A stretch of 64,000 nucleotides of DNA from Acidobacteria bacterium RIFCSPLOWO2_12_FULL_68_19 (GCA_001767525.1 MELF01000023.1:4682-68681); one strand, 5' to 3'; positions 6,333 through 20,743 are shown, counted from the stretch's first letter. The notes: generated from the letters alone by a model not told the origin. Program-made: numbers and translations.

Positions 6333-6406
6333 TGGGAGGTCGTTCAACGGTAGGACACGTGGCTCTGGACCACGTTATCGGGGTTCGAATCCCTGCCTCC
6401 CAGCCA
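6333..6406 (+). tRNA. tRNA-Gln (anticodon CUG), CCA encoded
   Basis: 74 nt folded by hand. Acceptor stem TGGGAGG/CCTCCCA, D stem GTTC/GGAC, anticodon stem CGTGG/CCACG with loop CTCTGGA (anticodon CTG), T stem CGGGG/CCCTG with loop TTCGAAT. U1-A72 pair and G73 discriminator are as in bacterial tRNA-Gln. Confidence 0.95.
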
Positions 6407-6773
6407 CTAAGTCGTTCACTAGCAACAACTTACGGCACGAGAGATCCGGCCCGATCAACTGGTCTTGCGCCACATTATCAGTCTCGGTATCGACACCCGA
6501 GCAACCGCTTGACGTTCAAGGGGTTAGCGAACGCCAGGGCCACGTTCGCCGATTCGCCCAGAGACACGAATGAGACACGCGGCAAATTCGATCGCCGTCC
6601 CGCGCGCGCGCCCACACCTCGTCCTGTCCGATGCCGGCGGGCGATGAGCTCGGGCCTGGATGCTGGGGCGACGATGCTATCGTCGTCGGGCCGGGGCGAT
6701 ATCGATGCGCCAAGGATGAAGGCCATCGAGAACGGATGTCGCCATGGAGCGGGCTGTCACGCGCTGAACTGCG

Positions 6774-7412
6774 ATGTCGGATTTGGTTCATCAGGTCACT
6801 GTCGACCACTCCGAGAGGCGCTCGGCATTACTGGATGCTGTGCGTCGGACCGGCGCGTTCCAGGTGCGGATGGCGCGTCTCGCGACCGGTGACTATCTGA
6901 TTGGGAACGATGTGCTCATCGAGCGGAAGTCGGTCGCCGACTTGGCCGCCTCTCTCGTCGACGGACGCCTGTTTCCGCAGGTGGCACGACTGGCTCACAG
7001 CGGCTACCGATCCCTTCTGCTGATCGAAGGCTCGGCGACCACGTCGATTCCTGATGTGCATCCCCACTCGCTCGAAGGCGCACTCGTGTCGATCACGGCC
7101 ATGTGGCGCGTGCCGGTGCTGCATTCGTCCGATGCGGAACAGTCGGCGCGCATGCTGCACTTCCTTGCCGATCAGGTGCGTGGACCGCACGAGCGAGTTC
7201 TGCGGCGATTCGACCAGAAGCCGAAACGCCTCGCATCGAGAAAGCTCTTCCTGTTGCAGGGGCTACCAGGCGTCGGTCCTGCTCTCGCGCAGCGCCTGCT
7301 CGACCACTTCGGGACCATCGAACGCGTCTTCACGGCTGACGCGTCCGCACTGGGTGAGGTCCGAGGTGTCGGTCCCAGGAAGGCCGCCCGCATCCGGGAA
7401 CTCGTTCTCTGA
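6774..7412 (+). CDS. ERCC4/XPF-type nuclease with C-terminal (HhH)2, copy 1
   Basis: 212 aa. Has the ERCC4 catalytic signature LATGDYLIGNDVLIERKSVADLAASL (GDY...ERKxxxD). The C-terminus has two helix-hairpin-helix motifs: LQGLPGVGPALAQRLLDHFG and VRGVGPRKAARIRELV. Confidence 0.8.
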   Translation: MSDLVHQVTVDHSERRSALLDAVRRTGAFQVRMARLATGDYLIGNDVLIERKSVADLAASLVDGRLFPQVARLAHSGYRSLLLIEGSATTSIPDVHPHSLEGALVSITAMWRVPVLHSSDAEQSARMLHFLADQVRGPHERVLRRFDQKPKRLASRKLFLLQGLPGVGPALAQRLLDHFGTIERVFTADASALGEVRGVGPRKAARIRELVL

Positions 7413-7475
7413 CGTGGGGCACGGCTCTATCGATCGGTTGCCTCTCCATCGCTGACGATCTATATTGATCGAGAA

Positions 7476-7889
7476 GTGGCCACACGGCGCAGCCTGCCCG
7501 TCCGAGGGCGATCGCTCCTGAAGGGCGGGCGCAAGCGTGTCCTCGTCGTTTTGTTCGTCCCGAGCGTCGAGCGTGATGGGAGGGCTCCCATCGACCAGGA
7601 TCGCTGGGTCGACGCTGCCTTGGACATGTTCGGGCGTGTGTTTGGAGGGGCGACCGCCTATCCAAAGGCGAAGGGTGTCTGGCGCGACGATGAACGAAAC
7701 GGCGCACTGGTGAAAGACGAACCAGTCGTCGTCCATTGCTACACGACGCGCGCCGACATCGAGGACGCCAGACACCTGGCGGAACTCGGGACCTTCTGCA
7801 GAACGATGGGCCGCGACGCCCGTCAGGGCGAGGTTGGGTTGGTCATTGGAGACGAGTATTTTGCGATCCGTGAGTTCACGGAGGAGTGA
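7476..7889 (+). CDS. hypothetical protein (137 aa), second gene of ERCC4 cassette
   Basis: GTG start. Non-Arg-biased composition: VLVVLFVPSVERDGRAPIDQDRWVDAALDMFGRVFGGATAYPKAKGVWRDDERNGALVKDEPVVVHCY. Tightly spaced with flanking same-strand genes. No family recognised. Confidence 0.55.
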   Translation: MATRRSLPVRGRSLLKGGRKRVLVVLFVPSVERDGRAPIDQDRWVDAALDMFGRVFGGATAYPKAKGVWRDDERNGALVKDEPVVVHCYTTRADIEDARHLAELGTFCRTMGRDARQGEVGLVIGDEYFAIREFTEE

Positions 7890-7892
7890 CAG

Positions 7893-8258
7893 ATGAAGTC
7901 GAGCCTCGACATGAACAAGATCGCTCGTGGGCTTCGCGCGGAACGCAAGGGCACAGTCTCGGTCGGCGGCGGCTACTTCGGGGCGATGCAGCTGCTGGCG
8001 GAGATCGAGGCGCGCTTCCGCGTGCCGATGGGCGGAGGGCGGGCAACGGATCCCGAGTGGACCGAACGACGGCTGGTCCCGTTGGCCCCCCGAACCCTCA
8101 AGCGTCTCGAGGCGATCACGGAAGGCGTCAGAGCGCGGAGCGGCGTGAGCGTGGAACCGATGCAGCTCGCCGCCTTGTTGCTCGAGAAGACGACCGAACA
8201 GCTCAACGACGATGACGTGAGGGATCTAGTCACTGGCCAGCGGCGTGCGAGTCGGTGA
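7893..8258 (+). CDS. hypothetical protein (121 aa), third gene of ERCC4 cassette
   Basis: ATG 4 nt after the previous stop, with GGAGGAG upstream. Sequence includes MNKIARGLRAERKGTVSVGGGYFGAMQLLAEIEARFRVPMGGGRATDPEWTERRLVPLAPRTLKRLEAI. No family recognised. Confidence 0.55.
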   Translation: MKSSLDMNKIARGLRAERKGTVSVGGGYFGAMQLLAEIEARFRVPMGGGRATDPEWTERRLVPLAPRTLKRLEAITEGVRARSGVSVEPMQLAALLLEKTTEQLNDDDVRDLVTGQRRASR

Positions 8259-8262
8259 TTGA

Positions 8263-8577
8263 GGGCAAACGCCCACGCATCTGGATGCCACAGACATTCA
8301 AGTTCAGGCCGACGCTGGACCATGTTCACGAACCGCAAGAGACCAGCTCGACACGGATGAGGCCGAAATCCGCCGGCGATATGCCACACGCCTCTTTCAG
8401 CAGCGCCTGCACCAGCGCGAGTTCCGCGAGCGCGTCGTGCGGGCGTACCAGCATCACTGTGCAGTCTGCCGCCTGCGGCGCGATGAGCTTCTCGACGCGG
8501 CTCACATCGTACTGAAGCGGTGGCGTCGAACACTCGAACAAAACCGAGCGGAGCGGCACGGAGCGCCACCGGTCCGC
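8263..8577 (+). pseudogene. HNH (HNH_2-type restriction-endonuclease-like) fragment, truncated at the islet junction
   Basis: In-frame LDTDEAEIRRRYATRLFQQRLHQREFRERVVRAYQHHCAVCRLRRDELLDAAHIV matches the FR..V..AY...CAvC......L.AAHI core of HNH_2 nucleases. There is no N-terminal domain or start codon. Homology is lost after AAHIV, and the frame runs into the tRNA-fragment repeat. Confidence 0.5.
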
Positions 8578-8625
8578 GGCTCTTTGGACCACGTTATCGG
8601 GGTTCGAATCCCTGCCTCACCGCCA
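8578..8625 (+). repeat. degenerate copy of tRNA-Gln 3-prime half (att-like)
   Basis: GGCTCTTTGGACCACGTTATCGGGGTTCGAATCCCTGCCTCACCGCCA versus tRNA 6361-6406: a 2-nt insertion in the anticodon-loop part and two substitutions in the acceptor arm. No 5-prime half upstream. Confidence 0.75.
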
Positions 8626-8636
8626 TTTAAGTTGTT

Positions 8637-8888
8637 CTATCCATTCACATTTCCTCCGAGCTCAGGCCCCGTCTCCCCCAGGTCTCCAAGATTCCTGCAG
8701 GACGAGGGCTGATCCAGCAGCCGAATCGCACCGTCCAGCGCTGCCGGACTCAGGTGCATGTACCGCTGTGTCATGCCGAGCTCACCGTCGCAGACGCTGA
8801 TGACGTCGAGCACACGTTCGAGTTCCGATCGATGGTCGTGCCCACAGGTCACGCCCTGTATGCGCGAGAGCGCGTGCCTGAGGGGCAA
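8637..8888 (-). pseudogene. tyrosine-recombinase (integrase) C-terminal remnant
   Basis: GHDHRSELERVLDVISVCDGELGMTQRYMHLSPAALDGAIRLLD resembles the box II region (H.LRH ... LGH....T..Y.HL) that carries the catalytic Tyr. There is no room for the remaining roughly 300 aa. It lies directly after an att-like repeat. Confidence 0.45.
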
Positions 8889-9230
8889 GAGGGCTACGAG
8901 TTCTCCGTCCTCGGCGACTTCGACGCCAACGCGTGGGACCTATTCAGGTTGCTGTACGACCGGATTCAGCACGGACTCGCCGTCCGCCACGTGGAACGAG
9001 GCGAGCTCGGCTGGCGGATCACGGACGCACGTCATCTCGTCGGCCGCATCACGTGGGATCCTGACCGCGCCGGGGAGGTTCCGCTGTTGGTCATCGACGG
9101 CCGACCCTTCACCTGGGATCAGGTGGGCCGGATGTTGATGTCCTTCGAGGGCTTCACGCTTCGGGCGTTCGTGGACGACAGCATCGAGGTCATCGGAGGC
9201 CCACTTCTGGACGAAGAGGGGAAAGTCTGA
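8754..9230 (+). CDS. hypothetical protein
   Basis: GYEFSVLGDFDANAWDLFRLLYDRIQHGL...LVGRITWDPDRAGEVPLLVIDGRPFTWDQVGRMLMSFEGFTLRAFVDD looks protein-like. The N-terminal about 26 codons overlap the integrase remnant on the other strand, so ATG 8832 is the more likely start. Confidence 0.45.
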   Translation: MHVPLCHAELTVADADDVEHTFEFRSMVVPTGHALYARERVPEGQEGYEFSVLGDFDANAWDLFRLLYDRIQHGLAVRHVERGELGWRITDARHLVGRITWDPDRAGEVPLLVIDGRPFTWDQVGRMLMSFEGFTLRAFVDDSIEVIGGPLLDEEGKV

Positions 9231-9296
9231 ATCGGGAATCCTTTCCGCTTGATTCTCGTCTGGCGACGATGACATCGTCGTCGTGCGGAATCGGAT

Positions 9297-9944
9297 ATGG
9301 ACGCGCGAAGAACGAAAGGGTCGCTTGCTTCAAGGATCACTACGTCGCCGGGCATCCCTGACTCTGTCCATCAGCTCGCTGTCGACCACTCCGAGCGCGA
9401 CTCGGTATTGCTGGACGCGGTGCGTCGGAGCGGCTGGTTCGACGTGCGGATGGCACGTCTGGCTACCGGCGATTACTTGGTGAACGGCGAAGTGCTGGTC
9501 GAGCGAAAGACCATTCGTGACCTGGTCGCCTCGCTCGTTGACGGTCGCCTGTTTCCGCAAGTGGCACGATTGGCTCACAGCCCACACCGATCGCTGCTCC
9601 TGATCGAAGGTCCGACGCCTTTCTCGCTGCCGGACGTGCATCACCACTCGGTGGAAGGAGCACTCGTTTCGATCGCCGCCATGTGGCGGCTTCCCGTGCT
9701 GCAATCATCCGACTCGGAACAATCGACCCGCATGCTGCGGTTCCTGGCGGAGCAGGTGCGCGGACCACAGGAGCGAATCCTGCGGCGATTCGACAGGAAG
9801 CCGAAACGTCTTGCGTCGAGGCGGCTTTTCCTGCTGCAGGGGCTGCCAGGAGTGGGACCCGCGCTCGCACACCGGCTCCTCTGCCACTTCGGTTCAATCG
9901 AGCGGATCGTCACCGTGGACGCCGCCACACTGGCCGAGGTGTGA
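9297..9944 (+). CDS. ERCC4/XPF-type nuclease, copy 2, ended by an in-frame TGA before the last HhH
   Basis: Paralog of 6774-7412 (RMARLATGDYLVNGEVLVERKTIRDLVASLVDGRLFPQVARLAHS...LLQGLPGVGPALAHRLLCHFG). TGA at 9942-9944 sits where copy 1 has CGA (Arg). The homologous GIGARTAARIRELV continues in frame up to 10049. Confidence 0.7.
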   Translation: MDARRTKGSLASRITTSPGIPDSVHQLAVDHSERDSVLLDAVRRSGWFDVRMARLATGDYLVNGEVLVERKTIRDLVASLVDGRLFPQVARLAHSPHRSLLLIEGPTPFSLPDVHHHSVEGALVSIAAMWRLPVLQSSDSEQSTRMLRFLAEQVRGPQERILRRFDRKPKRLASRRLFLLQGLPGVGPALAHRLLCHFGSIERIVTVDAATLAEV

Positions 9945-10306
9945 GGCATCGGCGCAAGAACGGCGGCGCGTATTCGAGAGCTCGTTGGCAGTCCATCTCC
10001 GGGCGGCTCTATCCACCACCTCGCACAGGAGGACCAAACACGCGGCTGACGAACGTCGAGCGGAGACCACATAGCGATGCGAAAGAAACCAGTCGGCACC
10101 AGAAAACCGAAGGCGCTTCGCGAGCGTGTCGAGGCTCTGAGGAGAGCCGGCGTGATCGCGTGGAGCGGACGGCGGCTGCGACCAGCGAAGCCCGCGGGGC
10201 AAGGTCCGTGGCATCAGGACTATCGCCGACGTGCTTGTCGAGAACCGCGAGTAACGGTGTCTTCAACGCGAGTGCTTCGGTTAGCCGTCGTCCTGGAGGA
10301 GGTCCA

Positions 10307-10816
10307 TCACGAGCGATCTGTCGATGTCGCATTCGCTGGTTCTGCGCCTTCTCCCACGTGCGCGAGCGATTCGCGAATCAGAGCGGGTGCGATGCGGAAG
10401 CCCTCCGCGACGAGCGCGTCAAGCACGGGCTTGAGTGCAGGGAGCAATGCCCGTCGTCGCGCGTGAACGAGCACGCCGAGTGTTCCCCGCACGGCGAGAC
10501 CACGCGCCTGTGCCACCTTCCGGCCCACTCGCTCGTCGATCAGAAGGAGATCGGCCCGAAGAGATTCGGCGACGAGTATCGCCGCGGTCTCTCCTGGATC
10601 CAGCCCAAGGTCTGACTGTGGCGAGGGCTCATCGACGACACGCAACCATCGCGCATGGCGGAGCGCGTCAACGCCAGGCGCGGACGGACGCCGTTCCACG
10701 GCTTCATCCCACACCGCTCTTGGCACCACGACGTCCTCAAAGAGCGCTGGAAGGAGGTGAAGGGCTCCGACCCGCGAGAGATAGATCAGGGGCGAGCTGT
10801 CTGCGACGACCAGCAC
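10307..10816 (-). CDS. DUF3368 PIN-like toxin
   Basis: MLVVADSSPLIYLSRVGALHLLPALFEDVVVPRAVWDE...DPGETAAILVAESLRADLLLIDERVGRKVAQARGLAVRGTLGVLV is the typical DUF3368/COG2405 pattern. It lies downstream of a UPF0175 partner. Confidence 0.8.
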   Translation of the reverse strand: MLVVADSSPLIYLSRVGALHLLPALFEDVVVPRAVWDEAVERRPSAPGVDALRHARWLRVVDEPSPQSDLGLDPGETAAILVAESLRADLLLIDERVGRKVAQARGLAVRGTLGVLVHARRRALLPALKPVLDALVAEGFRIAPALIRESLAHVGEGAEPANATSTDRS

Positions 10817-10822
10817 GCGGCC

Positions 10823-11077
10823 TCAGCGCTGGCTCTTCGGAATGGCTCCGAGCTCTTGCCTGAACTCTTCGACGTCGTGATCGATGGCGTAGAGGCCGTG
10901 CCGGCCGGCCTCGATGAGGAAGTCGTCGAGCGTCATGTCGAGTGCGCGTGCCGCGGAGGCACGAGTCAATCGGCCGGCTCGTACTTCGTCGATGACCAGG
11001 AGAAGACGCGCGCGCCTGGCCAATTCGTCGGTCGGCTGCTCAGAGAGCGGGCCCGGAATCTCGACTGTGATCTCCAT
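10823..11077 (-). CDS. UPF0175-family antitoxin
   Basis: MEITVEIPGPLSEQPTDELARRARLLLVIDEVRAGRLTRASAARALDMTLDDFLIEAGRHGL fits the UPF0175/COG2886 pattern. Start taken at internal ATG 11077, not the track start 11272. Confidence 0.75.
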   Translation of the reverse strand: MEITVEIPGPLSEQPTDELARRARLLLVIDEVRAGRLTRASAARALDMTLDDFLIEAGRHGLYAIDHDVEEFRQELGAIPKSQR

Positions 11078-11280
11078 GGAACTTCTCATTCCGATTGTAG
11101 CCGTACCATCCGCTCCCAGCGGCATCCTGAAGCGAGGCTGCACAGAGCGACAGGGCCTGAGACACAATGAGACATTTTGTGCGTGAACAAAGCAGAACGG
11201 AGGGGAGCCTACCGAAGCGATAACGTCGAAAACTGGAACAAGACAGAGCGGGGCGGCACGGGCCGCACCCATTCACCGCT

Positions 11281-11324
11281 CTCTGGACCACGTTATCGGG
11301 GTTCGAATCCCTGCCTCCCAGCCA
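11281..11324 (+). repeat. exact copy of tRNA-Gln 3-prime half (att-like)
   Basis: 44/44 nt identical to 6363-6406 (anticodon loop through CCA). Upstream sequence cannot form the anticodon stem or 5-prime half. Confidence 0.9.
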
Positions 11325-11616
11325 AGTTCGAACCCCGGGTCGCACACCGACAGAACATCAATCATTTCGAACACTTCCACGCTCGAATACATGCAGTCGG
11401 ACTGGGAACGTCAAACCGATCTTGGACACTTTGGCGACTAAGAACTCAGCCAATTGTCGAAATTCCTAATGTTGTCGCCGGGCCGGTCCGCTTCAGCACT
11501 CGCGAGAATTGACCCGCGTCTGCTCGCCGAGAATGGACCACTCGCAGCAGGCTCGCATCGTGTATCTGGGGCTGACGTGCGTGCATGCTATCGTATCGAA
11601 TCTGTCAGGAGGCGCT

Positions 11617-12402
11617 GTGCGCTACGCCGAGTTCCGTGATCGACTCGAAGATGCGCTTCAGGAGGCGGGGCTCTTCTTCCAAGGCGCTGATCGGCACGTC
11701 GAGACGATTGACCTCGCGCACGCCGCACGGAGCTGGAAGGTTCATCTCTTCGGAGCGGCACTTCCGAGCGCAGATCCCTTCCACGTTTCGGCGGAGATCG
11801 GTTTTGAGTGGAGTCCCGTCGATGCGGCTCGCGCGTACACCACCGAAGAAGACCTCCTCACGGAACTCGTGGGCAGGAGGCGGCGACCGATCAGGACGGA
11901 GCGCAGGTGGACACGGATAGACCTTTCGCTTCACGCGAGCCTCCCGTACGGTTCGACGACGTCGATGCCGGACTCCCGCGTTCTCGGCTCGTGGACGGCT
12001 TCTGTTGTAGAGAAGGCTGATGCTGCCTTCACCGACATCGAGGAGAAGAAAGGGCGCGTCGTGGCCGTCCTCGGCGGGCACGGGGACGTCGAAGTGCACG
12101 CGCACTGCAAACCTGACGGCGTCATTTCGCTGAGGGCGGTGGCCATCTCCGGCTTCCGCTTGGTTCGTGTGCCCCGGGTCTGGGACGATCCCGAGCGCCG
12201 CGAGGCCGAGAGGGACCTCGCCGACCTTGGTGGACTGGCGCGGAGGCTCAAGACCGCACTCGATGAGTGGACGAGGAGTGTCTCGGAACTCGCGACCTGG
12301 ATCCGGTACTCGCCGCCGCCACCGGAAGCGAAACCAGCCGAACCGTGGGTCGAGGATCAATCCGAGGACGACAATGACAGCGGGCCGGAGACGACGCACT
12401 GA
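11617..12402 (+). CDS. hypothetical protein (261 aa), convergent with SWIM-SNF2 helicase
   Basis: GTG at 11617 preceded by AGGAGG (11607-11612). Sequence includes VRYAEFRDRLEDALQEAGLFF and an acidic, Pro-rich C-terminus. No family recognised. Confidence 0.5.
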   Translation: MRYAEFRDRLEDALQEAGLFFQGADRHVETIDLAHAARSWKVHLFGAALPSADPFHVSAEIGFEWSPVDAARAYTTEEDLLTELVGRRRRPIRTERRWTRIDLSLHASLPYGSTTSMPDSRVLGSWTASVVEKADAAFTDIEEKKGRVVAVLGGHGDVEVHAHCKPDGVISLRAVAISGFRLVRVPRVWDDPERREAERDLADLGGLARRLKTALDEWTRSVSELATWIRYSPPPPEAKPAEPWVEDQSEDDNDSGPETTH

Positions 12403-12503
12403 CTGAGAGCGCGCCGATAGCGGCGTTGTTGCGCTGGTTCGCCGTGTGCGGCTGCCTCGATGAAGCGGCGCGACAGTTTCTCTGCGCGATCGATCTTGCT
12501 CAA

Positions 12504-15263
12504 CTACGCGTTCGGTCGAACGCGCCGAGTGGGACCTCTTCCGGTGGCCGGCGGTGTGGCGGCGGCCTGGAGCAGCTGCGCCATCCCGGAGAAGAGCGCT
12601 CCCAACGTCGACGCGGCTTCAGGCGGCGCCTCGATGACCAATCCGCCGCTGGCGGTACGTCGCACGGTCACGCCGGCCACGAGACGCTGGATGGCGGCAG
12701 CCGAATCCGCTGGCTCGGGCGCGTTGGCGATTGTGGCGAGCGCCACGTCATGCGACTCGTCCCCTGCCGCCACAACCGCCTCGATCTCGCGCTCGGCACC
12801 ATCGTTCTCGGCCACGCTGACATCCTCAGCGCGGCTCGGCGCGGGCGAGATCGCCGGCACGACGATACGCTCGATGCGGGAGAGAAAACTTCCGGAGCGC
12901 TCGAAGACCACCGCGTCGGTCGTCCCGTCGAACAGTCCAGTGAAGAGCGCCTGCTTGGACCCGACGAGCTCGGCGATCCGTGACTCGATTCCCGGCTCGC
13001 TCACCAGGTTGTAGACGTCAATCGGGCGGCGCTGTCCGAGACGGTAGATCCGGCCGATGCGCTGCTCGAGCACGGCGGGATTCCAGGGAAGCTCGATGTT
13101 GATGCAGGCGCTCGCGGCGCGTTGCAGGTTGAGGCCGACGCCGCCGGCGTCGGTTGCGAAGAGCACGCGGCAGGCGGGGTCGTCGTGGAAGTCGACGATG
13201 TTCTGCGTGCGCCGCTTCTGGCCCTCCTCGCCGGTGAAGAACGCCGGTCTGACGCCCTCTCGCGAGAGCTGGTCGCGCGTCGCCCAGTGCGCGAGTCGGA
13301 GCATCCGCCGCCACTGGCTGAACACCACCACCTTGCGCCCTTCGGTCAGCGCGAGCTGACCGATCAGCTCACGCAGTTCCACCAGTTTCGGGCTCGCCAG
13401 TCCCCGAAGCGTGGAGTCGGTGGGCCGCTCGATCCGCGACAGGTCGGGCCAGACCTGTTCGAAGCGCAGCTGGGCCAGGCCGTTGGCGATGATGCGCTGC
13501 GTGGTGAGCAGCGTCATCAGACGGAGGAACTCCGCCTGCGTGAGCGGACGCCGCTTTGCGCGGCCGAGGATCTGCGCGATCGGCATGGTGAGCGCGTCGT
13601 GCTCGTCGATCTGCTCCGCGGTCATCTCGATGGGAATCCGCGTGTCGGTCCGCGCGGGCAGCTGCGAAAGCACCTCTCGCCGCACGCGCCGGACCATGCA
13701 CACGGCTAGACGGGTCCGCAGCGTCTCGAGGTTCCGGGCGCCGCTGATCTCCGTTGTTCCATCCACGGGCGTGGTGTGCCACGCGGCCAGGCGCCATTTC
13801 GGCTCCAGCGCCAGGTCGTCGACCCACTCGACAATCGACGCGAGCTCGTCGAGCCGGTTCTCCATCGGTGTGCCGGTCAGCACGAGACGGTACGGTGGAT
13901 CCAGGCGCTTCACGGTCAGCGCGGTCTTCGTCGCCCAGTTCTTGATCCGCTGGGCCTCGTCGAGCACTACGATGTCGGGCGCCCATTCGCGAACGACGTC
14001 GATGTCGCGAATGAGCTGCTCGTAGTTGCCCAGGAGGAATCCGCGCCGACACGCCTCGAACGCCGCGCAGCGCTGGGAGGGTGTCCCCTCGACGACGGTG
14101 GCCGGAGCGTCGGTGAAGGCCTGCCACTCACGAAGCCACTGCGGCTTGAGCGCGGCGGGGACAACGATGAGGCCACGGCGGACGCGGCCAGCATGCCAAA
14201 GAGCGTGGCAGGCGGCAATCGCCTGCGCGGTCTTGCCGAGACCCATATCGTCGGCAAGGAGCAGGCGTCCCCGCACGAAGAACCGGTCAACGCCGTCGCG
14301 CTGATAGGGATAGAGCGATTGCTTGAGGGTGTGCAGCGCGCGGTGCAGGCGCGTCCGGGTGCTCGCGGTCTGCACCTGACGCGCGAGCCGCACGCGCTCT
14401 TGCTGCAGCAGTGCGTGCAGTGCCGGCTCGCTGTTGCCGTCGCTGAGCACGCCGAGCAACCGATCCACGAGCGTCCGCCGCTGCTGCAGCCCTTCGGGAA
14501 TCGCGGCGGTCCAGCCACGTCCCTTCGTTGAGCGCAGCCAGCGCCGCAGACCGCGATCGGGCACACCGTCGACCCAGCGCACGCGCGCCAGCCAGTGGCC
14601 AAGGCCGGTCAGCGGGCGGACGGGATCCCACCGCAACGGTGCCGGCGCGGGAGCCTCCTCGCGTTCGATATCCACCCGACGCCGCTTCGAGACCACGTCC
14701 TCGAGGACGGCGACGAGGTGCTTGCACAGCCCGAGCGAGTTCCGGAGGAAATCGGCGCAGTCGCAACTGCCGTCGAGCGGCTCGATCCGACGGAGGAGCG
14801 TGCGGTACGGGCGTGCGCGCGACCCACGGCGCCTGGTCGCGTACAGACCCAGCAGCCGGCTCCGTGGACGTCCGACGATCTGAATCTCGTCCACGTGAGT
14901 GGACGCGCAGCGGCGAAGCACCGCCTCGAGCGCGTCGCGCTGGATGGGCCAGTCGCCTCCCTGCGTGACCGACAGGACGTGGCGCACGATGCGCTCGGCC
15001 GGCACGCCGCCCGTTCGCCGGCGCGCGCGCGCGAGCAGCGTCTGGTAGGCCTCGCTCTCGGTGATGGCGATCGTCTCGGGCTGAGATGAACGACTCTGCA
15101 TATCTTCCCCGTTGTCGGAAGTTGGGATCGGTGTCGGCGAGTCGACGTATTCTTCCACAGACGCGATAAACGGAGCTGGGACGTCGTTTTGAACTCCGAT
15201 ATCGACGGTGCGAGGTGGCCGCATGGCGAAGAAGCGTCGAGCACAGGCCGTGGGCATGAACAA
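12504..15263 (-). CDS. SNF2-family helicase with N-terminal SWIM zinc finger
   Basis: SWIM motif CDCADFLRNSLGLCKH. Helicase motifs LLADDMGLGKTAQAIA (I), VLDEAQRIKN (II), LTGTPMENRLDEL (III), LFATDAGGVGLNLQ (V), ELPWNPAVLEQRIGRIYRLGQ (VI). The N-terminal boundary is uncertain (see the frameshift finding); ATG at 15101 is an alternative start. Confidence 0.85.
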   Translation of the reverse strand: MFMPTACARRFFAMRPPRTVDIGVQNDVPAPFIASVEEYVDSPTPIPTSDNGEDMQSRSSQPETIAITESEAYQTLLARARRRTGGVPAERIVRHVLSVTQGGDWPIQRDALEAVLRRCASTHVDEIQIVGRPRSRLLGLYATRRRGSRARPYRTLLRRIEPLDGSCDCADFLRNSLGLCKHLVAVLEDVVSKRRRVDIEREEAPAPAPLRWDPVRPLTGLGHWLARVRWVDGVPDRGLRRWLRSTKGRGWTAAIPEGLQQRRTLVDRLLGVLSDGNSEPALHALLQQERVRLARQVQTASTRTRLHRALHTLKQSLYPYQRDGVDRFFVRGRLLLADDMGLGKTAQAIAACHALWHAGRVRRGLIVVPAALKPQWLREWQAFTDAPATVVEGTPSQRCAAFEACRRGFLLGNYEQLIRDIDVVREWAPDIVVLDEAQRIKNWATKTALTVKRLDPPYRLVLTGTPMENRLDELASIVEWVDDLALEPKWRLAAWHTTPVDGTTEISGARNLETLRTRLAVCMVRRVRREVLSQLPARTDTRIPIEMTAEQIDEHDALTMPIAQILGRAKRRPLTQAEFLRLMTLLTTQRIIANGLAQLRFEQVWPDLSRIERPTDSTLRGLASPKLVELRELIGQLALTEGRKVVVFSQWRRMLRLAHWATRDQLSREGVRPAFFTGEEGQKRRTQNIVDFHDDPACRVLFATDAGGVGLNLQRAASACINIELPWNPAVLEQRIGRIYRLGQRRPIDVYNLVSEPGIESRIAELVGSKQALFTGLFDGTTDAVVFERSGSFLSRIERIVVPAISPAPSRAEDVSVAENDGAEREIEAVVAAGDESHDVALATIANAPEPADSAAAIQRLVAGVTVRRTASGGLVIEAPPEAASTLGALFSGMAQLLQAAATPPATGRGPTRRVRPNA

Positions 15264-15264
15264 C

Positions 15265-15429
15265 GACGGACAAGCGGGTCGCTGCGTTGACCGGCAGCAC
15301 GACGCCCTGAGGTTTGCTGAAGAGGACGGTGGCGTAACAATCGCCGAGGGTGGTTGTTGACGTCACCTCACACGGTGTGCTGTGACCGAGCCGATCGAGG
15401 AGCTTACGAGTGCGGCGTACGACGACCAT
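15265..15429 (-). pseudogene. DUF6933-like leader ORF in a different frame from, and abutting, the SNF2 ORF
   Basis: MVVVRRTRKLLDRLGHSTPCEVTSTTTLGDCYATVLFSKPQGVVLPVNAATRLSV resembles the DUF6933 N-terminus as I remember it (..KLL..LG....STT.LGDWYA......q.lvL.v...trL.vv.P). After about 15265 this frame becomes Arg-rich nonsense, while the similarity seems to continue in the SNF2 frame (MPTACARRFFAM...VPAPFIASVEEYV). Confidence 0.4.
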
Positions 15430-15601
15430 GGGTCACTCGTCCCCGTTGGTCGGGGCGCACCGGACCGGCCGCTGCGCCCTCAGGCGTCGGGGCTGGCGGG
15501 CGTTCCATGCAGGCGTCAGCGTCCGAGCGCGCAGTAGCCCCGGCAACTTCGTGATCTCGATGTTGCAAACTACGGCACCTTGCGATGCGCCGTCAGGCGC
15601 G

Positions 15602-15898
15602 TCAGCGGTCGATTCTCGATCGCCAGTAATCGGGGCGGCGGCTTTGATGGGCGAGGACCTCGACGCGCACCACATCGGGCGGCAGGCTGTAGATCAGCGA
15701 GAACGGGAAGCGCTGGAGACCATACTTGCGTAGATCGGCGTCGACGGAGATTCCAATCTCTGGATGCGCCAGCAGAATGTCGAGCGCCCGTCGAACATCC
15801 GCGCCGAAACGCTGGCCGAGGCCAGAGACCTGATGCTCGTAGTATGCCGCCGCCTCAATGAATTCCAACTCCGCTTCCGGGTGGAATTCAAGTCTCAT
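15602..15898 (-). CDS. ParE/RelE-family type II toxin
   Basis: 98 aa. MRLEFHPEAELEFIEAAAYYEHQVSGLGQRF...RFPFSLIYSLPPDVVRVEVLAHQSRRPDYW is the plasmid-stabilisation ParE-like pattern. A 4-nt overlap joins it to the upstream antitoxin. Confidence 0.8.
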   Translation of the reverse strand: MRLEFHPEAELEFIEAAAYYEHQVSGLGQRFGADVRRALDILLAHPEIGISVDADLRKYGLQRFPFSLIYSLPPDVVRVEVLAHQSRRPDYWRSRIDR

Positions 15899-16128
15899 CG
15901 ATTCAAGCGCGCGCGAAGGTTTTCGAAGACACGGTCGCCCGAAACGGGCTGGACCTTCCCGTCAATAACCTCGCGGTGTCGCCGTTGGGCCTCGTCGATC
16001 CACGCCAGCTCAACGTCGGCCTCGACTGGTCCGTCGAGTTCGGCAAGCAGTGCGCGAATGAGGCCCGTCCTGTCGTCCGAGTCCAACGATCGGATCTGTG
16101 CTTCCAGTTCGGCAACAACTCTCGACAT
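15895..16128 (-). CDS. addiction-module antitoxin (putative addiction module component type)
   Basis: 77 aa. VAELEAQIRSLDSDDRTGLIRALLAELDGP...AWIDEAQRRHREVIDGKVQPVSGDRVFENLRARL is typical of the small helical antitoxins paired with ParE/RelE toxins. Confidence 0.7.
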   Translation of the reverse strand: MSRVVAELEAQIRSLDSDDRTGLIRALLAELDGPVEADVELAWIDEAQRRHREVIDGKVQPVSGDRVFENLRARLNR

Positions 16129-16468
16129 GTCACCTCCGTACAGCCAGCGTTGGCCGTCTCCATATTCTACAGCCGTGACCCACGGTGGCAGATTGACCGT
16201 CCCCCTGGCATTCCGGCCGTGCGCCCATCGGCTTGATCTACTCCTTGTGGGAGACGTTCCGAGTGCACTCCGGAGATTCCCTTCGATGAAACTCGGGGAA
16301 GCCCTTTACGTCGAGTGTCATTTCGAGTGTCATTGCGCTGGCAAAATACGAAAACGGACGCGAACGGACGAAAGCCGACGACAGAAGGCGAAAACGCTAA
16401 ATCGCTGGCTTCTCGCGAGTTCCAGCGACACGGCCCATGTCTATTGGTGTTTCGTGAGGTTGGCTCGG

Positions 16469-16489
16469 CGAATCCCTGCCTCCCAGCCA
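16469..16489 (+). repeat. short copy of tRNA-Gln 3-prime end (last 21 nt)
   Basis: CGAATCCCTGCCTCCCAGCCA is identical to 6386-6406. Upstream sequence diverges. Confidence 0.6.
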
Positions 16490-16742
16490 AATACGCCTCT
16501 GACTGTCAGTCATTTAGTCGCGGGTGATCGCGCCATCCCCGATTACGTGGTCTGCGAACACATTCTGAACGTTTCACGGCTGCGTTGGTAAACGTCACCA
16601 CGAAGTTGCTGGACGTCAAGGAGTTGGACGGTTCCGTCACGACGGTCCGATTGAGTAGGGACCTCGAGCTCTTGACGAAAAGTTGACGAGCTGGCCGCTA
16701 TGACTGCGTCCGTACGCGGTCCGGTCAGTCCCTCCGGTATTC

Positions 16743-18731
16743 TTGGGCGCGGCATTGACCAAACCATCTGCACGCGCGTCCGCGTACTACTCCAGACCCG
16801 TGGATCTCTTTCTCGCTACCGATCCGTACGAGGTGCTTGGTGCTCTGAGTGCGGCACACATCTACGACCTCGAAGTCGAGCAGCGTCAGGCGTGGGAAGA
16901 GGAGTTGAACATCCTAAGAGTCGCTCTACGGGGGCTATCTGGCACTCTCTGTCTCGAATTCGACGTCCCGCGCCTTGGCAGCCGAATCGACGCCGTGCTG
17001 GTTTCTGGGCCAGCAATCTTTCCCATCGAGTTCAAGTGCGGAGAACGTCAGTTCCGTCTCCCCGACTACAACCAGGCGTGGGACTACGCGTTGGACCTCA
17101 AGAACTTTCACGCTGCGAGTCACGACGCACCGATTTGTCCCGTCCTCGTGGCGACGGAATCTGACACCGCCGATGAGACCTGGCAGGGCCCATATCCGGA
17201 CGGCGTGCGGCCGCCGTATCGTTGCGGCGCTCGCCACCTCGGCGATGTTCTTCAACGTGGTCTCGCACTGACCAGCGGACCTCCGATCGACGGCGAGGCT
17301 TGGGGAGCCGCTCCATATCAGCCGACGCCAACCATCATTGAGGCGGCCCGGGCTCTCTACGCGCGACACTCGGTCGAGGCGATTTCGCGCAGCGACGCCG
17401 GCGCCAAGAACCTACGCGTCACGTCAGCCAGCGTCGAGGAGATCATCGAGCGCTCCCGAGGCGACCGTGACAAGTGTGTCGTCTTCGTCACGGGCGTACC
17501 CGGCGCCGGGAAGACGCTCGTGGGCTTGAACGTGGCGACACGGCGGCGGATGTTGGGAGAAGCCCGTGCGGTCTATTTGTCAGGAAACGGTCCGCTGGTG
17601 GCTGTTCTTCAGGAGGCGCTCACGCGTGACGAACTCGCGCGCATCGGACACACCGAACGGAAGGGGGCGGTGCGCCAGAGGGTGAAGCCGTTCATTCAGA
17701 ACGTCCACCACTTCCGGGATGAGGGCGTGCGCACGACCATTGCCCCTTACGACCACGTGGTCATCTTTGATGAAGCACAGCGCGCGTGGACGCGGGCGAA
17801 GACCGCCGACTTCATGAAGCGTCGGAAGAAGATTGCGACTTTCGACCAGTCCGAACCGGAGTTCCTTATTTCCTATCTGGACCGGCACGATACGTGGGCG
17901 GTTGTCATCTGTCTCGTTGGAGGCGGGCAGGAGATCCACACGGGCGAGGCGGGGATCGGCGAATGGCTCGAGGCCGTTCGGCTCCACTTCCCGCACTGGC
18001 GTGTTCATGTTTCACCGAATCTCACCGACTCTGAATACGCGGCGCAGTCACCTCTGGAGCGCCTCGCCGCCGTGGCGTCGATCGTCTGGGACGATCGACT
18101 CCATCTCGCAACGTCAATGCGATCGTTCCGGGCGGAGAAGGTGTCCGCGTTCGTCAAGGCTGTTCTCGACAGTGACGTAGTCTCGGCCCGAACACTGCTC
18201 CGGGAGGTTACGCGGCGGTATCCGATTGTCGTCACGCGCGACCTGGCACGCGCGAAGACATGGATCCGCAGCCACGCTCGTGGTTCCGAGCGCTACGGGC
18301 TGGTCGCATCGTCGCAGGCCCAACGCCTCAAGCCACACGCGATCGATGTCCGCGTCAACGTCGATCCGGTCCAGTGGTTCCTGAACGACAGGCATGACAC
18401 GCGATCGAGCTATTACCTGGAGGATGCCGCAACCGAATTTCAGGTGCAGGGTCTCGAGCTCGACTGGGTCTGCGTGACGTGGGATGCAGATTTGCGACGC
18501 CATGCGGAGTCATGGCGCTACCACTCGTTTCGCGGAGACGGATGGACGACAGTCCACAAGGAAGACCGGAAGCGCTATCTGCTGAACGCCTACCGCGTTC
18601 TGTTGACACGGGCGCGCCAGGGAATGGTCATCTTCGTGCCGCCTGGCGACGAGTCGGACCCGACTCGTGCTCCGTCGTTTTACGACGACACCTACCAGTA
18701 CCTCACCGGCCTTGGAGTCGCCGAGGTCTGA
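16743..18731 (+). CDS. DUF2075-family P-loop NTPase with N-terminal PD-(D/E)xK-like nuclease motif
   Basis: 662 aa. N-terminus RIDAVLVSGPAIFPIEFKCGE (a D...E.K restriction-endonuclease-like motif) and QAWDYALDLKNFH. Walker A VTGVPGAGKTLVG and Walker B VVIFDEAQRAW. ICLVGGGQEIHTGEAG is typical of DUF2075. Confidence 0.8.
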   Translation: MGAALTKPSARASAYYSRPVDLFLATDPYEVLGALSAAHIYDLEVEQRQAWEEELNILRVALRGLSGTLCLEFDVPRLGSRIDAVLVSGPAIFPIEFKCGERQFRLPDYNQAWDYALDLKNFHAASHDAPICPVLVATESDTADETWQGPYPDGVRPPYRCGARHLGDVLQRGLALTSGPPIDGEAWGAAPYQPTPTIIEAARALYARHSVEAISRSDAGAKNLRVTSASVEEIIERSRGDRDKCVVFVTGVPGAGKTLVGLNVATRRRMLGEARAVYLSGNGPLVAVLQEALTRDELARIGHTERKGAVRQRVKPFIQNVHHFRDEGVRTTIAPYDHVVIFDEAQRAWTRAKTADFMKRRKKIATFDQSEPEFLISYLDRHDTWAVVICLVGGGQEIHTGEAGIGEWLEAVRLHFPHWRVHVSPNLTDSEYAAQSPLERLAAVASIVWDDRLHLATSMRSFRAEKVSAFVKAVLDSDVVSARTLLREVTRRYPIVVTRDLARAKTWIRSHARGSERYGLVASSQAQRLKPHAIDVRVNVDPVQWFLNDRHDTRSSYYLEDAATEFQVQGLELDWVCVTWDADLRRHAESWRYHSFRGDGWTTVHKEDRKRYLLNAYRVLLTRARQGMVIFVPPGDESDPTRAPSFYDDTYQYLTGLGVAEV

Positions 18732-18745
18732 CTGAATCGGGCCGT

Positions 18746-19213
18746 TCAACGCCTTAATAGACGCTCATCGAAATCGAATGGATGTGGATCGCCGACGCGA
18801 ACGGCTCCGAAATCCTGGTGTCGCGGATTCAACAGGTAGTTCAACTCCGATTCAATGACAGCGCTCGGCACTTTCAGGACCGCTGACCTGCCCGCCTTAA
18901 CCCATTCGTCACCAATCAGCTGGAGCTCGGGCGGAGCCGGATACGAGCGCCAGTTAGGGGGAAGGCGCTTCGAGTCGAGACGCTCCACAAGGGCTTCATC
19001 GAACGTACAGGCGATGAGGACGTACGCACTCAGGATCGACCGGCGCCGCAGGTGGACTAACAGCTCCAACGTCGCTAACGCCGCGCTCTCGGACGCGTAG
19101 ACGAGGGGCGTGCCTGGTGAATTCCAGCGTCCGCCTTCGAGACGAGCGCCCTCGCCATCGAAAGCGTTCGCGGCGTGTCTGGCCTTGACGATCCGCCAAG
19201 CCGTAATCGCCAC
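18746..19213 (-). CDS. RES-domain toxin
   Basis: AWRIVKARHAANAFDGEGARLEGGRWNSPGTPLVYASESAALATLELLVH...VLKVPSAVI carries the R-E-S residues pattern. GTG at 19213 shares one base with the TAG of the upstream antitoxin. The track N-terminal extension is rejected. Confidence 0.85.
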   Translation of the reverse strand: MAITAWRIVKARHAANAFDGEGARLEGGRWNSPGTPLVYASESAALATLELLVHLRRRSILSAYVLIACTFDEALVERLDSKRLPPNWRSYPAPPELQLIGDEWVKAGRSAVLKVPSAVIESELNYLLNPRHQDFGAVRVGDPHPFDFDERLLRR

Positions 19214-19731
19214 TACGAGAAGACGCCGTGCTCGAGGCGGCCGACCAGCCGCTCCACCTCTTGAACACCTAGCTCGGTACGCGCAAGGTCCAAAGGAATA
19301 CCGCCGCCCAAGGCCGGCTGTGCTGTTGTGAGCCATTCCACTGCGGCATCGCGATCGCCTTCAAAGAGCTGGAGCGCCTTTCCGAACAGTCTGGCGGCCC
19401 GTAGAAGGCGATCGGATTCATCCGAAAGGAATCGGCTGTCTGTTTTGCGGCGCGTCAGCGTGCGGCGTGGAATGTTGATGAGGTCGATAAGGCGATCAAC
19501 CGACAGCGAAGTGTTTCGCTGGAATCGCTCGAACGCGCGATACGGGATGCCGCGCTGAACCGCTCGGAGCAAGCCTGGCGCGTCGAACGTATCGAGGCCC
19601 AACAGGACGACGTACGCGTGCGGCCCGGGCTGACCCGCTCGGAGCTGCTGCCGAAAGCGATCGAGGTCCTTGGTGGTCTCGGTTCCCTCATGAAGCGCGG
19701 CGGCTGCGGTCTTGGCCATATGGCCATCCAT
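19213..19731 (-). CDS. Xre/MbcA/ParS-type antitoxin (DUF2384) of the RES toxin
   Basis: GIPYRAFERFQRNTSLSVDRLIDLINIPRRTLTRRK...SDRLLRAARLFGKALQLFEGDRDAAVEWLTTAQPALGGGIPLDLARTELGVQEVERLVGRLEHGVF. Start at ATG 19731 or 19719. Confidence 0.85.
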   Translation of the reverse strand: MDGHMAKTAAAALHEGTETTKDLDRFRQQLRAGQPGPHAYVVLLGLDTFDAPGLLRAVQRGIPYRAFERFQRNTSLSVDRLIDLINIPRRTLTRRKTDSRFLSDESDRLLRAARLFGKALQLFEGDRDAAVEWLTTAQPALGGGIPLDLARTELGVQEVERLVGRLEHGVFS

Positions 19732-19871
19732 TATGCGCCATTTGCGCCCTTGACGAACACTTGACAGATTGCGCACGAAGGGGCCGTCCCCGACCGGAGA
19801 CGCCCGACGATCTGCCCGATTTTCCTAAGGAAACCGAAGCAACCCAGAATCACCCACGTCGATTGGGCCGC

Positions 19872-19915
19872 CTCTGGACCGCGTTATCGGGGTTCGAATC
19901 CCTGCCTCCCAGCCA
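19872..19915 (+). repeat. copy of tRNA-Gln 3-prime half, right boundary of the islet array
   Basis: 43/44 nt identical to 6363-6406 (A to G at 19881). No 5-prime half; preceding bases cannot pair as an anticodon stem. Confidence 0.9.
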
Positions 19916-19960
19916 CACCCCTCCGTTGACGGCCCACTCCAATCGACGATAATCGGCGCC

Positions 19961-20719
19961 ATGCGACTGCGACTCCTGCCGCTCGCGCTGGCCTTCCCCC
20001 TCGCGTCGTCCGCCTTCGGCGAAGAGCTGAAGGTCCATGCCGCCGCCGGCGTGAAGGCCCCCTTCCTGAAGCTGGCCGCCGACTACGAGGCGAAGACGGG
20101 CCACACGGTCACCGTCGTCTTCGACACGGCGGGGGCCGCCAACAAGCGCTTCCTCGCGGACCCGGATGCGGCGCTCCTCATCACGACGCAGGCGCTCGTC
20201 GGCGAGGGGGAGAAGAACGGCCGGCTCGCCGGCGGGACGAGCTATCGCCTCGGCGAGACGGTGGCCGGCTTTGCCGCGCCGCCGGGATCCCCGAAGCCGG
20301 ACATCTCGACGCCGGAGAAGCTGAAGGCGGCGCTGCGCTCGGCGCGCCGCATCGCCTTCTCCGACCCGGCCAGGGGCGCCACCGCGGGCACGCACTTCAT
20401 GAAGGTGATCGAGACGCTCGGCATCAGGGACGAAGTGCTGAAGAAGGCTACGCTCGCCCAGGACGGCGTCGAGACGATGCGCCTCGTGCTCGAGGGGACG
20501 GTCGATCTGGGCGTCACCCAGACGAGCGAGATCGTCCAGGCCAATCGCGCGGCGCTCGTCGGTCCCTTCCCGAAGGAGTTCGACCTGGCGACCACCTATT
20601 CCCTGTGGCACCGGGCCGGTCTGTCTCCGGCGGCGAGCGGTTTCGTCGCCCTGATCACCAGCCCCGCCGGACGGGCGAGGCTGGCGGAAGACGGCGTGCG
20701 GTCGGCTGCCGGACGATAG
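19961..20719 (+). CDS. periplasmic substrate-binding protein, ModA/molybdate-binding-like
   Basis: Signal peptide MRLRLLPLALAFPLASSAFG. LKVHAAAGVKAPFLKLAADYEAKTGHTVTVVFDTAG resembles type-2 periplasmic-binding-fold (ModA-like) proteins. Confidence 0.55.
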   Translation: MRLRLLPLALAFPLASSAFGEELKVHAAAGVKAPFLKLAADYEAKTGHTVTVVFDTAGAANKRFLADPDAALLITTQALVGEGEKNGRLAGGTSYRLGETVAGFAAPPGSPKPDISTPEKLKAALRSARRIAFSDPARGATAGTHFMKVIETLGIRDEVLKKATLAQDGVETMRLVLEGTVDLGVTQTSEIVQANRAALVGPFPKEFDLATTYSLWHRAGLSPAASGFVALITSPAGRARLAEDGVRSAAGR

Positions 20720-20743
20720 CCGGCTGGCGCACGGCTTCCCGCG

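Follow-up and report, generated by a model that had tools for sequence, protein, structure and literature searches.

A truncated DUF6933 gene adjoins the upstream region of an intact SWIM-SNF2 helicase gene in an islet at a glutamine tRNA gene

Does a short frame that resembles the N-terminus of DUF6933 proteins form one gene with the helicase frame that follows it, or do the two frames belong to different genes? The question arises in a 64,000-nt stretch of DNA from Acidobacteria bacterium RIFCSPLOWO2_12_FULL_68_19 (GCA_001767525.1, MELF01000023.1:4682-68681), which we refer to as the window. The first-pass annotation favoured a one-base frameshift, that is, a mutation, a sequencing error or a programmed +1 shift, which would yield a DUF6933-SWIM-SNF2 protein of the 970-aa class, and its second option was a separate partner gene that had been disrupted. 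We consider that the DUF6933 frame is very probably a dead 5' gene stump that was joined, by deletion or recombination and with no frameshift, to the promoter region of an unrelated and intact helicase gene.

The family of the upstream frame had been named correctly. The 55-aa segment that begins at ATG 15429 matches PF22016 with 30.3 bits (E 4.2e-7; profile positions 2-55 of 157), above the gathering cut-off of 27 bits, and the stump scores 28.5 bits when the genome is scanned with this profile. HMMs built from order-level DUF6933 proteins return 39.6-52.7 bits, with positions 1-62 aligned at 52.7 bits. The similarity keeps to its own frame as far as HMM position 61-62 (...RLSVVVHAHGL, 15247), beyond the ORF-finder start of the helicase frame, TTG 15263; the helicase start is therefore not the exact point of a frame change that it had been taken for. 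The stump thus occupies 15247-15429 on the minus strand and holds codons 1-61/62 of about 168. In L028, a related Acidobacteriota MAG, the intact 168-aa DUF6933 protein (L028:7001-7507) matches PF22016 end to end and PADLOC profile PDC-S63 with E 2.7e-17, and the stump is identical to it at 48 of 62 aa and at 86% of nucleotides. The stump aligns above the gathering score, but it contains the first third of the domain only, whereas the complete domain spans about 157 profile positions and intact proteins have about 165 aa. No further PF22016 piece was found in a profile scan of the whole genome, and no further DUF6933 piece in any frame of window positions 6000-21000; 106 codons are missing. 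In addition, the stump carries R in place of a near-invariant C (C6R; at least 90% C in the subfamily alignment) and C in place of an invariant W (W31C). PDC-S63 is a PADLOC candidate for single-gene phage defence, and an intact protein that matches its model would mark a member; the 62-codon window copy does not belong to it. The stump still has its ATG with a Shine-Dalgarno-like motif, and some translation of a nonsense-tailed product is therefore possible; we regard the stump as probably dead and expressed as nothing useful.

The helicase is a different gene with its own start. A 919-aa open frame runs from 15263 to 12504 on the minus strand, and the SWIM and SNF2 features reported for it are present: SNF2-rel_dom (PF00176, 121.5 bits) and Helicase_C (PF00271, 70 bits) identify an SNF2 family ATPase with a core at approximately residues 257-741 (nt 14333-12879), and the SWIM signature CDCADFLRNSLGLCKH (CxC...CxH, ~14700-14774) is conserved in all homologs read, with a Pfam SWIM (PF04434) score of 17.2-19.5 bits against a cut-off of 19.6 bits. 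The reported length did not stand. More than 100 homologs at 73-94% identity, of ~855-865 aa, start with MQSRSSQPE, which is ATG 15101 in the window, and a Shine-Dalgarno-like GGGGAAG motif precedes this codon. The helicase is therefore made as an ordinary 865-aa protein (12504-15101, minus strand). The supposed helicase-frame extension corresponds to a conserved non-coding region 5' of the helicase (15102-15245, minus strand), which overlaps the start of a neighbouring gene; its identity to L026 is 94%, and conservation can also be recognised in L003. In relatives the stretch 15263-15102 is occupied by other frames and contains in-frame stops. The extension has a GC3 of 0.63, as against 0.85 for the helicase body; the tail of a 380-aa ORF has 0.53. 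DNA with 67% GC commonly has long open frames, and those that seem to link the stump and the helicase are of this kind.

A frameshift fusion draws its appeal from the 88 codons by which the helicase frame stays open upstream of ATG 15101, reaching into the last part of the DUF6933 match, and from the start signals of the stump, but several results argue against it. The continuation of the domain that had been seen in the helicase frame (FMPTACARRFF...VPAPFIASVEEYV) gives no signal, its score against the DUF6933 HMM being -2 bits, and when the two frames are fused conceptually the Pfam score falls from 30.3 to 26.1 bits, with the match no longer than before. Likeness to the intact DUF6933 gene ends at ~15250 in all frames, and from there on the sequence shares 94% identity with the DNA upstream of the helicase in a relative that lacks DUF6933 at that place. 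Moreover, the distance from the stump to the helicase ATG is only 55 codons, as against the 106 DUF6933 codons that are missing, and the site has no slippery heptamer. Of the top 120 helicase homologs, not one has PF22016. In L002 and L003, stops close the upstream frame, and at homologous loci the gene upstream ends at a stop of its own, with no similarity running on into the helicase frame. The same sequence is also found in a second assembly. The frameshift, which had been the favoured option, is effectively refuted, and we regard it as extremely improbable.

What lies between the two genes is a change of parent sequence. According to three-way nucleotide alignments, the parent switches at 15244-15260 with no indel: the window resembles the TA-DUF6933 islet of L028 up to ~15250 (homology at 16489-15578 and 15429-15260) and then the helicase-upstream sequence of L026 and L003. 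In blastn, the match to L028 ends at 15260 and that to L026 at 15245, and base by base the junction has only a few bases of imperfect microhomology. The switch point is eight codons into p188, a divergent 188-aa gene that precedes the helicase in relatives, so that the p188 stump (MAKKRRAQ; 15223-15246, plus strand) and the DUF6933 stump lie head-on. The full gene is present in L003, L037 and L127; its starts were compared in L026 (MAKKRRAHDQEAW...), L037 (VAKKRRAHDDEAW...) and L003 (VANTRRARDAEAW...). Other scars occur at the same place, with ParE joined almost directly to the helicase in L027 and a p188 stump of 37+ codons in L026, and L041 keeps only the last 150 helicase codons.

A junction of this kind could also be produced by the mis-joining of two metagenome contigs at 15244-15260, and the source genome, with 52 contigs and a locus in a repeat-rich ladder, offers some occasion for it. 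However, the junction lies inside no repeat, the tRNA repeats being 1.2 kb and 3.9 kb away, and it is identical in L025, a separate ENA metagenome scaffold that is colinear with the window over 12.7 kb around the junction at 99.66% identity and departs from it elsewhere by SNPs (0.34%) and an indel of 42 nt. This scaffold, whose sample may be a related one, is the one assembly outside the source assembly that supports the junction, and the exact 31-nt junction had no match in JGI metagenome contigs. With a colinear scaffold of this length, an assembly chimera is hardly credible.

The two parents meet within an islet at a tRNA-Gln(CTG) gene (6333-6406), the source of the repeat copies that bound the islets. 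The left att-like boundary is a 44-nt copy of the tRNA 3' end (11281-11324; 100% identical to 6363-6406), and the right boundary is a 21-nt copy (16469-16489; 100% identical to the 3' end of the gene). These direct repeats are those of a tRNA-associated integrative islet, and the homology of the L028, L026 and L027 islets to the window begins exactly at the 16469-16489 repeat. No gene of 11324-16469 encodes an integrase domain. The window lies in a ladder at tRNA-Gln, in which small integrase-less islets follow one another with a copy of the tRNA 3' end as the boundary of every one, and the DUF6933 scar is ordinary decay within a mobile-element graveyard at this gene. Besides the helicase and the two stumps, the islet contains the toxin-antitoxin pair and the 261-aa ORF that the first-pass annotation had listed, and both are real, as is the SNF2 gene at the left window edge; the latter is of the DUF3670 type and encodes a different protein from the SWIM-SNF2 helicase, which has no Pfam SNF2_assoc or DUF3670 match. 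The antitoxin gene (15895-16128, minus strand; 77 aa) is Unstab_antitox/TIGR02574-like, scores 36.4 bits against PF09720 (cut-off 23.3 bits) and is 84% identical to the L028 antitoxin, and a sigma-70-like site lies beside it at 16191-16164. The ParE-family toxin gene (15602-15898, minus strand; 98 aa) scores 25.8 bits against PF05016 (cut-off 23 bits), overlaps the antitoxin stop by 4 nt and shares 85% identity with the ParE toxins of L028 and L027.

The intact relatives of the stump clarify which gene was disrupted. The module of L028 reads tRNA-Gln 3' repeat, antitoxin, ParE, full DUF6933 and tRNA-Gln. In the neighbourhoods compared here, intact DUF6933 genes sit behind toxin-antitoxin pairs, with no adjoining helicase of the SWIM-SNF2 family. 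Thus, a separate gene has indeed been disrupted, but it was not a partner of the helicase. Both genes are accessory, with patchy distributions: DUF6933 occurs in 39 of 201 genomes and the helicase in 8 of 121.

The stump, the junction, the intact parental arrangements, the helicase start and the accessory distribution of both genes are directly observed; the direction of events, and whether DNA was deleted or replaced, can be proposed with less certainty. Illegitimate recombination would have joined an L028-type islet (TA-DUF6933) with an L026-type islet (p188-helicase-p261), in the simplest version by a deletion between two neighbouring islets. Such a deletion would have removed DUF6933 codons 63-168, the inter-islet DNA and all but eight codons of p188, leaving the two 5' stumps head-on at 15244-15260. 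The helicase still has an upstream region of its own (145 nt), together with its Shine-Dalgarno-like motif and ATG 15101. The undeleted tandem (TA, full DUF6933, repeat, ..., full p188, helicase) was found in no genome examined, and the order of events is therefore one that we infer. In another history of the same scar, which appears unlikely, a TA-DUF6933 islet would have received the p188-helicase-p261 block by insertion or recombination, with the block taking the place of the 3' two-thirds of DUF6933. In its favour, the block of L026 has an MNT/HepT pair on one side and, at the repeat-proximal end, a DUF6933 relic with an internal deletion, and the neighbourhood of a close DUF6933 homolog, P0122, reads MNT, HepT, Fer4_19, DUF6933 without the block. 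The block is also found in several arrangements and states of decay, and the islets share ~195 nt beside the repeat that could support homologous exchange. However, p188 is cut at codon 8 in the window and at 37+ in L026, which defines no clean element end, and domain and defence-profile searches found no transposase or integrase in the block. Furthermore, the L026 relic has N-terminal residues of its own (CTRTLLDRL) downstream of the block, which misfits a simple split of one gene, and the window has no C-terminal DUF6933 piece beyond the block. Recombination between two islets, probably by deletion, is the history that we prefer.

The pieces around the scar may be of more interest than the scar itself. 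The helicase co-occurs with two unannotated proteins, p188 and p261. The gene p261 (11617-12402, plus strand), conserved and convergent with the helicase gene, has 305 homologs of ~261 aa with no Pfam domain, and their alignment has 41 invariant columns; its AF2 model (pLDDT 71.7) has no fold match in the PDB. It adjoins the helicase in the window, L025, L026, L033/L044 and L041, and the islet order of the L026 type is repeat, TA pair, p188, SWIM-SNF2 helicase, p261, repeat. From its sequence, the helicase might be an SNF2-type, ATP-driven translocase on dsDNA, of which the SWIM-containing N-terminal region would select the substrate, and it might act with p261 and p188 on the islet in a defence-like or element-maintenance role. 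For DUF6933, no paper that mentions the family and no known function were found. An AF2 model (pLDDT 91.8) is only loosely similar to the catalytic core, RNase H-like in fold, of retroviral-type integrases (TM ~0.5, E 5e-4), and the DDE triad is not conserved in the family alignment. The protein is small, would have an RNase H-like, integrase-core-like fold and is always tRNA-proximal in the minimal TA islets of the close subfamily; it may act in islet mobility or defence. That both proposals hold, with p188, helicase and p261 forming an undescribed accessory module for defence-like functions or element maintenance on integrase-less tRNA-Gln islets and DUF6933 serving islet mobility or defence, is a doubtful conjecture.

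Compared with known systems, the locus shows partial likenesses. Tandem islet accretion at a tRNA gene likewise has direct repeats of the tRNA 3' end at the islet boundaries and truncated genes at internal joints, but the islet here is without an integrase, and the DUF6933/helicase joint lies between two repeats and not at one; one repeat would therefore have been lost together with the deleted DNA. The toxin-antitoxin pair resembles type II pairs of ParE with TIGR02574/Unstab_antitox in its adjacent small genes, both above the Pfam cut-offs, and in the 4-nt overlap, and it is kept with DUF6933 in L028 and L046. However, the pair that precedes close-subfamily DUF6933 genes varies (ParD/ParE, MNT/HepT or Unstab/ParE), and with pairs swapped between families the TA-DUF6933 link is therefore positional and not that of a fixed three-gene system. 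Among defence helicases, the best PADLOC matches are ZorD (E 6e-59) and DpdE (E 2e-51), but the matches to ZorD, DpdE and DrmD cover the ATPase core only, and the NCBIfam scores lie far below the equivalog cut-offs (ZorD 101.6 against 1500, DpdE 94.6 against 500, DrmD 124.8 against 610). No partner genes of Zorya, Dpd or DISARM are present in the islet, and outside the core the helicase, with its SWIM signature in the N-terminal 250 aa and a further 120 aa at the C-terminus, matches nothing named. The core itself, a complete SNF2-rel_dom and Helicase_C unit, is like that of SNF2/Rad54-like ATPases and matches the structure of the Sulfolobus Rad54-like protein SsoRad54 (PDB 1z63) with E 2.8e-42. 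In Mycobacterium HelZ and Bacillus YwqA, a CxCxnCxH SWIM motif lies N-terminal to the SNF2 ATPase in one polypeptide; the helicase of the window, without an SNF2_assoc or DUF3670 match, has its SWIM signature in the corresponding place.

The 380-aa reading frame that opens at ATG 15429 on the reverse strand, behind an antitoxin gene and a ParE gene, was placed by the ORF finder one base out of register with the 919-aa frame of the SWIM-SNF2 helicase. Residues 1 to 55-60 of this frame are a true DUF6933 N-terminus, as the first-pass annotation had suspected: Pfam PF22016 matches the frame over profile positions 2-55 of 157 (E 4.2e-7, 30.3 bits against a cut-off of 27 bits), and it matches nothing else in the 4.2-Mb genome. 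The same annotation suggested that the DUF6933 sequence seems to continue in the helicase frame after a switch at 15265-15263, and one of its two readings was that a one-base frameshift fuses the leader to the helicase. However, HMMs that we built from complete DUF6933 proteins of the order to which the window genome belongs have their positions 1-62 matched wholly in the ATG 15429 frame (39.6 and 52.7 bits), to 15247 (...RLSVVVHAHGL), which is five to six codons beyond the proposed switch. The identity of the ORF therefore stands, and the details of the frame change do not. The helicase frame scores -2 bits against our own HMM and carries no DUF6933 signal, and when both frames are joined in a conceptual fusion, the Pfam score falls to 26.1 bits and the aligned region gains no length. 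PF22016 is likewise found in none of the best 120 of thousands of helicase relatives, most of them labelled as Acidobacteriota, Vicinamibacterales or Luteitalea MAGs. In all frames of the window and in the helicase-upstream regions of relatives, our HMMs match only at the stump (15429-15247). In the tail of this 380-aa frame GC3 is 0.53, which is typical of out-of-frame reading, and there are only 55 codons from the stump to the helicase ATG, against 106 that DUF6933 lacks. In an alignment with 25 intact relatives, two conserved positions are changed in the stump, near-invariant C6 to R and invariant W31 to C. Of the AF2 model of the intact protein, the stump covers strands 1-4 of five and the short first helix only, so it cannot fold as a DUF6933 domain.

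A search of the genome collection with the 60-aa stump returned a single relative, L028, a contig of an Acidobacteriota MAG. Here 20 nt that repeat the 3′ end of tRNA-Gln are followed by genes for Unstab_antitox (77 aa), ParE (98 aa) and full DUF6933 (168 aa) and by a tRNA-Gln(CTG) gene. Identity between the window and L028 amounts to 80% across 16489-15578 and 86% across 15429-15260. From the ParE stop to the DUF6933 ATG there are 172 nt in the window (15430-15601) and 53 nt in L028; the additional ~115 nt have 71% GC and recur in part in L027, a further relative. On the helicase side, the relative L026, whose helicase is 94% identical, shares nucleotide identity with the window from within the helicase back to exactly 15245. 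In L026 and in L003 (helicase 86% identical), the sequence upstream of the helicase runs into the divergently transcribed p188, a gene of 188 aa, of which the window retains eight codons only, on the forward strand from ATG 15223 (MAKKRRAQ; compare MAKKRRAHDQEAW in L026). In a three-way alignment, the window tracks L028 up to ~15250 and L026 from ~15246; between the two parts, microhomology is imperfect and limited to a few bases. Owing to this switch of parent two 5′ gene stumps, of DUF6933 and p188, meet head-on. The junction is the scar of a deletion or illegitimate recombination rather than an indel, and the proposed frameshift fusion is refuted. The junction is base-for-base identical in L025, a distinct scaffold from an ENA metagenome that belongs to the same species and differs from the window by 0.34% and by an indel away from the junction; the exact junction 31-mer has no match in JGI metagenome contigs. 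This 42-nt in-frame indel (14 aa, HDVALATIANAPEP) lies in the C-terminal linker of the helicase (window 12504-12900), and its longer form is present in more distant homologs.

The 919-aa frame, read from TTG 15263 to 12504 on the reverse strand, contains SNF2-rel_dom (121.5 bits), Helicase_C (70 bits) and the SWIM signature CDCADFLRNSLGLCKH, which Pfam scores at 17.2-19.5 bits, slightly below its cut-off of 19.6 bits. The SNF2 ATPase core is complete (residues ~257-741), and the nearest PDB entry is the Sulfolobus Rad54-like 1z63. The best 120 relatives are 73-98% identical (73-94% without the near-identical protein P0001) and typically ~855-865 aa long, and homologs that are read full length begin with MQSRSSQPE or close variants, which corresponds to ATG 15101 of the window. 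This ATG is preceded by GGGGAAG. The DNA of 15263-15102 is conserved in some relatives, where it either reads in other frames (VKEYVNS, CENTSTS, KNTSTRS) or meets stops 13-20 codons ahead of the helicase ATG; its GC3 is 0.63 versus 0.85 in the helicase body. The helicase start is ATG 15101; the TTG 15263 start and the 380-aa ORF are both spurious, a product of the frames that stay open in DNA of 67% GC. Reading the apparent frameshift or fusion in this GC-rich genome as a recombination scar averts mis-annotation as a 919-aa or fused 'DUF6933-SNF2' protein. A promoter scan gave one promoter-like site, that of the toxin-antitoxin (TA) genes, and nothing informative upstream of the helicase. Two unrelated kinds of sequence are found upstream of the helicase in different loci, one with divergent p188 (window 15102-15245, L026, L003) and one without similarity to it (L002, L027), and the change from one to the other lies no more than a few bases from the start codon, which suggests a cassette-like exchange at the 5′ edge of the gene. 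In the homolog P0013 (L003:5764-6010), 4-5 tandem copies of a 14-aa unit, GAPAARTVRGGVEP, directly follow MQSRSSQP.

The stump and the helicase lie in an islet, 11324-16469, within a series set by the tRNA-Gln gene (6333-6406) and the direct repeats of its 3′ end, at 8585-8618, 11281-11324, 16469-16489 and 19872-19916. The simplest history would be a deletion that merged an islet of TA genes and DUF6933 with a neighbouring islet of p188, helicase and p261, the last being a convergent gene of 261 aa (11617-12402, forward strand). The undeleted arrangement of these two islets was looked for in relatives and not found, and past the helicase block of the window our HMMs detect no remnant of the DUF6933 C-terminus. 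The main variant of this history would put replacement through recombination with another islet in place of the deletion. Relatives combine these blocks with other scars: L026 runs from a repeat through MNT/HepT, a stump of p188 (37+ codons), the helicase and p262 to a DUF6933 relic with an internal deletion, which a repeat follows; in L027 the antitoxin/ParE pair of the window is joined almost directly to the helicase via different upstream sequence; and in L041 p261 faces only the last 150 helicase codons, also beside tRNA-Gln repeats. Whether through deletion, the simpler course, or replacement, the finding is one of ordinary islet decay. On its own it is of small importance, and it adds a dated, base-resolved case of stacked tRNA islets that merge and decay. 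The helicase block is often broken up in relatives: decayed or rearranged copies occur in L035, L036, L037 and L041, as the N-terminal 540 aa followed by p188, as an internal fragment adjoining a p188 fragment, or as the C-terminal 150 aa alone. The next islet of the window encodes a 662-aa Schlafen-group-3/DUF2075 helicase (16743-18731, forward strand) with a full-length match to the PADLOC candidate PDC-S41 (E 9e-272, 901 bits). The gene that runs off the left edge, 1-1134 on the reverse strand, looks like the N-terminal part of another SNF2 protein, by eye of DUF3670/HelZ type and unrelated to the SWIM-SNF2 helicase.

The first-pass annotation alternatively considered a disrupted partner gene of the helicase. 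The disruption is real, but the partnership is not, given that no helicase, p188 or p261 occurs at the DUF6933 loci surveyed (20 in the order, 80 in metagenomes). One JGI contig carries a different, DUF3670-type SNF2 gene ~3 kb from a DUF6933 gene, plus a 261-aa ORF. Of 201 genomes of the order, 39 encode DUF6933, which matches the PADLOC candidate PDC-S63; neither name is mentioned in any paper that we found. The AF2 model of the intact protein (L028:7001-7507; m0d1ae5a8ef3f, pLDDT 91.8) is a single compact domain, predicted with high confidence; its RNase H-like fold bears no more than a loose likeness to the catalytic cores of retroviral-type integrases (TM ~0.5, E 5e-4). The family conserves E90, W31, S106 and P150, its alignment has no conserved DDE triad, and a PDB sequence search gave nothing meaningful. 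All five close relatives with context have a type II TA pair immediately before them, of Unstab_antitox/ParE, ParD/ParE or MNT/HepT families (L028:6043-7665, L046, L039 and the contigs of proteins P0122 and P0136). A constant place as third gene of a TA operon does not hold further out: among 19 more distant loci (20 upstream ORFs scanned), the upstream genes are heterogeneous, and TA-like genes stand at three. In L028, DUF6933 lies 85 nt from the tRNA-Gln gene, giving a minimal 1.5-kb islet without an integrase, and a distant DUF6933 adjoins a tRNA-Ala gene in L105. A family with a predicted RNase H-like fold that travels behind interchangeable TA pairs is a testable lead.

The helicase is an accessory gene: of 121 sampled genomes of the order, 8 carry it, spread over seven families and at 72-90% identity. 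That it occurs in ~7% of the order's genomes yet is 73-94% identical across families makes it a second lead open to testing. A third is offered by p188 (917 cluster representatives) and p261 (305 homologs), two sizeable families that lack a Pfam match and co-occur with the helicase. In the same 121 genomes, the helicase is also found in three of the four with p188 and in three of the four with p261 (Fisher's exact P = 7.5e-4 each; P = 0.0086 for p261 without the window genome). The three genes adjoin one another in several different orientations, and a joint function is plausible. A fold search with p261 gave no match (best TM < 0.26), and PHROGs gave no hits for DUF6933, p188 or p261. In L044:2632-14354 (genome shared with L128), a divergent helicase-p261 pair lies beside two Fic-domain proteins, a DUF5131 protein and an MmeI-like fragment, a patch that looks like a defence island. 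Very tentatively, the helicase may be an ATP-driven DNA translocase whose SWIM region would choose the substrate, in a defence-like or element-maintenance role. Partner genes of the ZorD, DpdE and DrmD systems are absent, and the helicase matches ZorD, DpdE, DrmD and others in PADLOC and NCBIfam at the level of the core, far under the family cut-offs.
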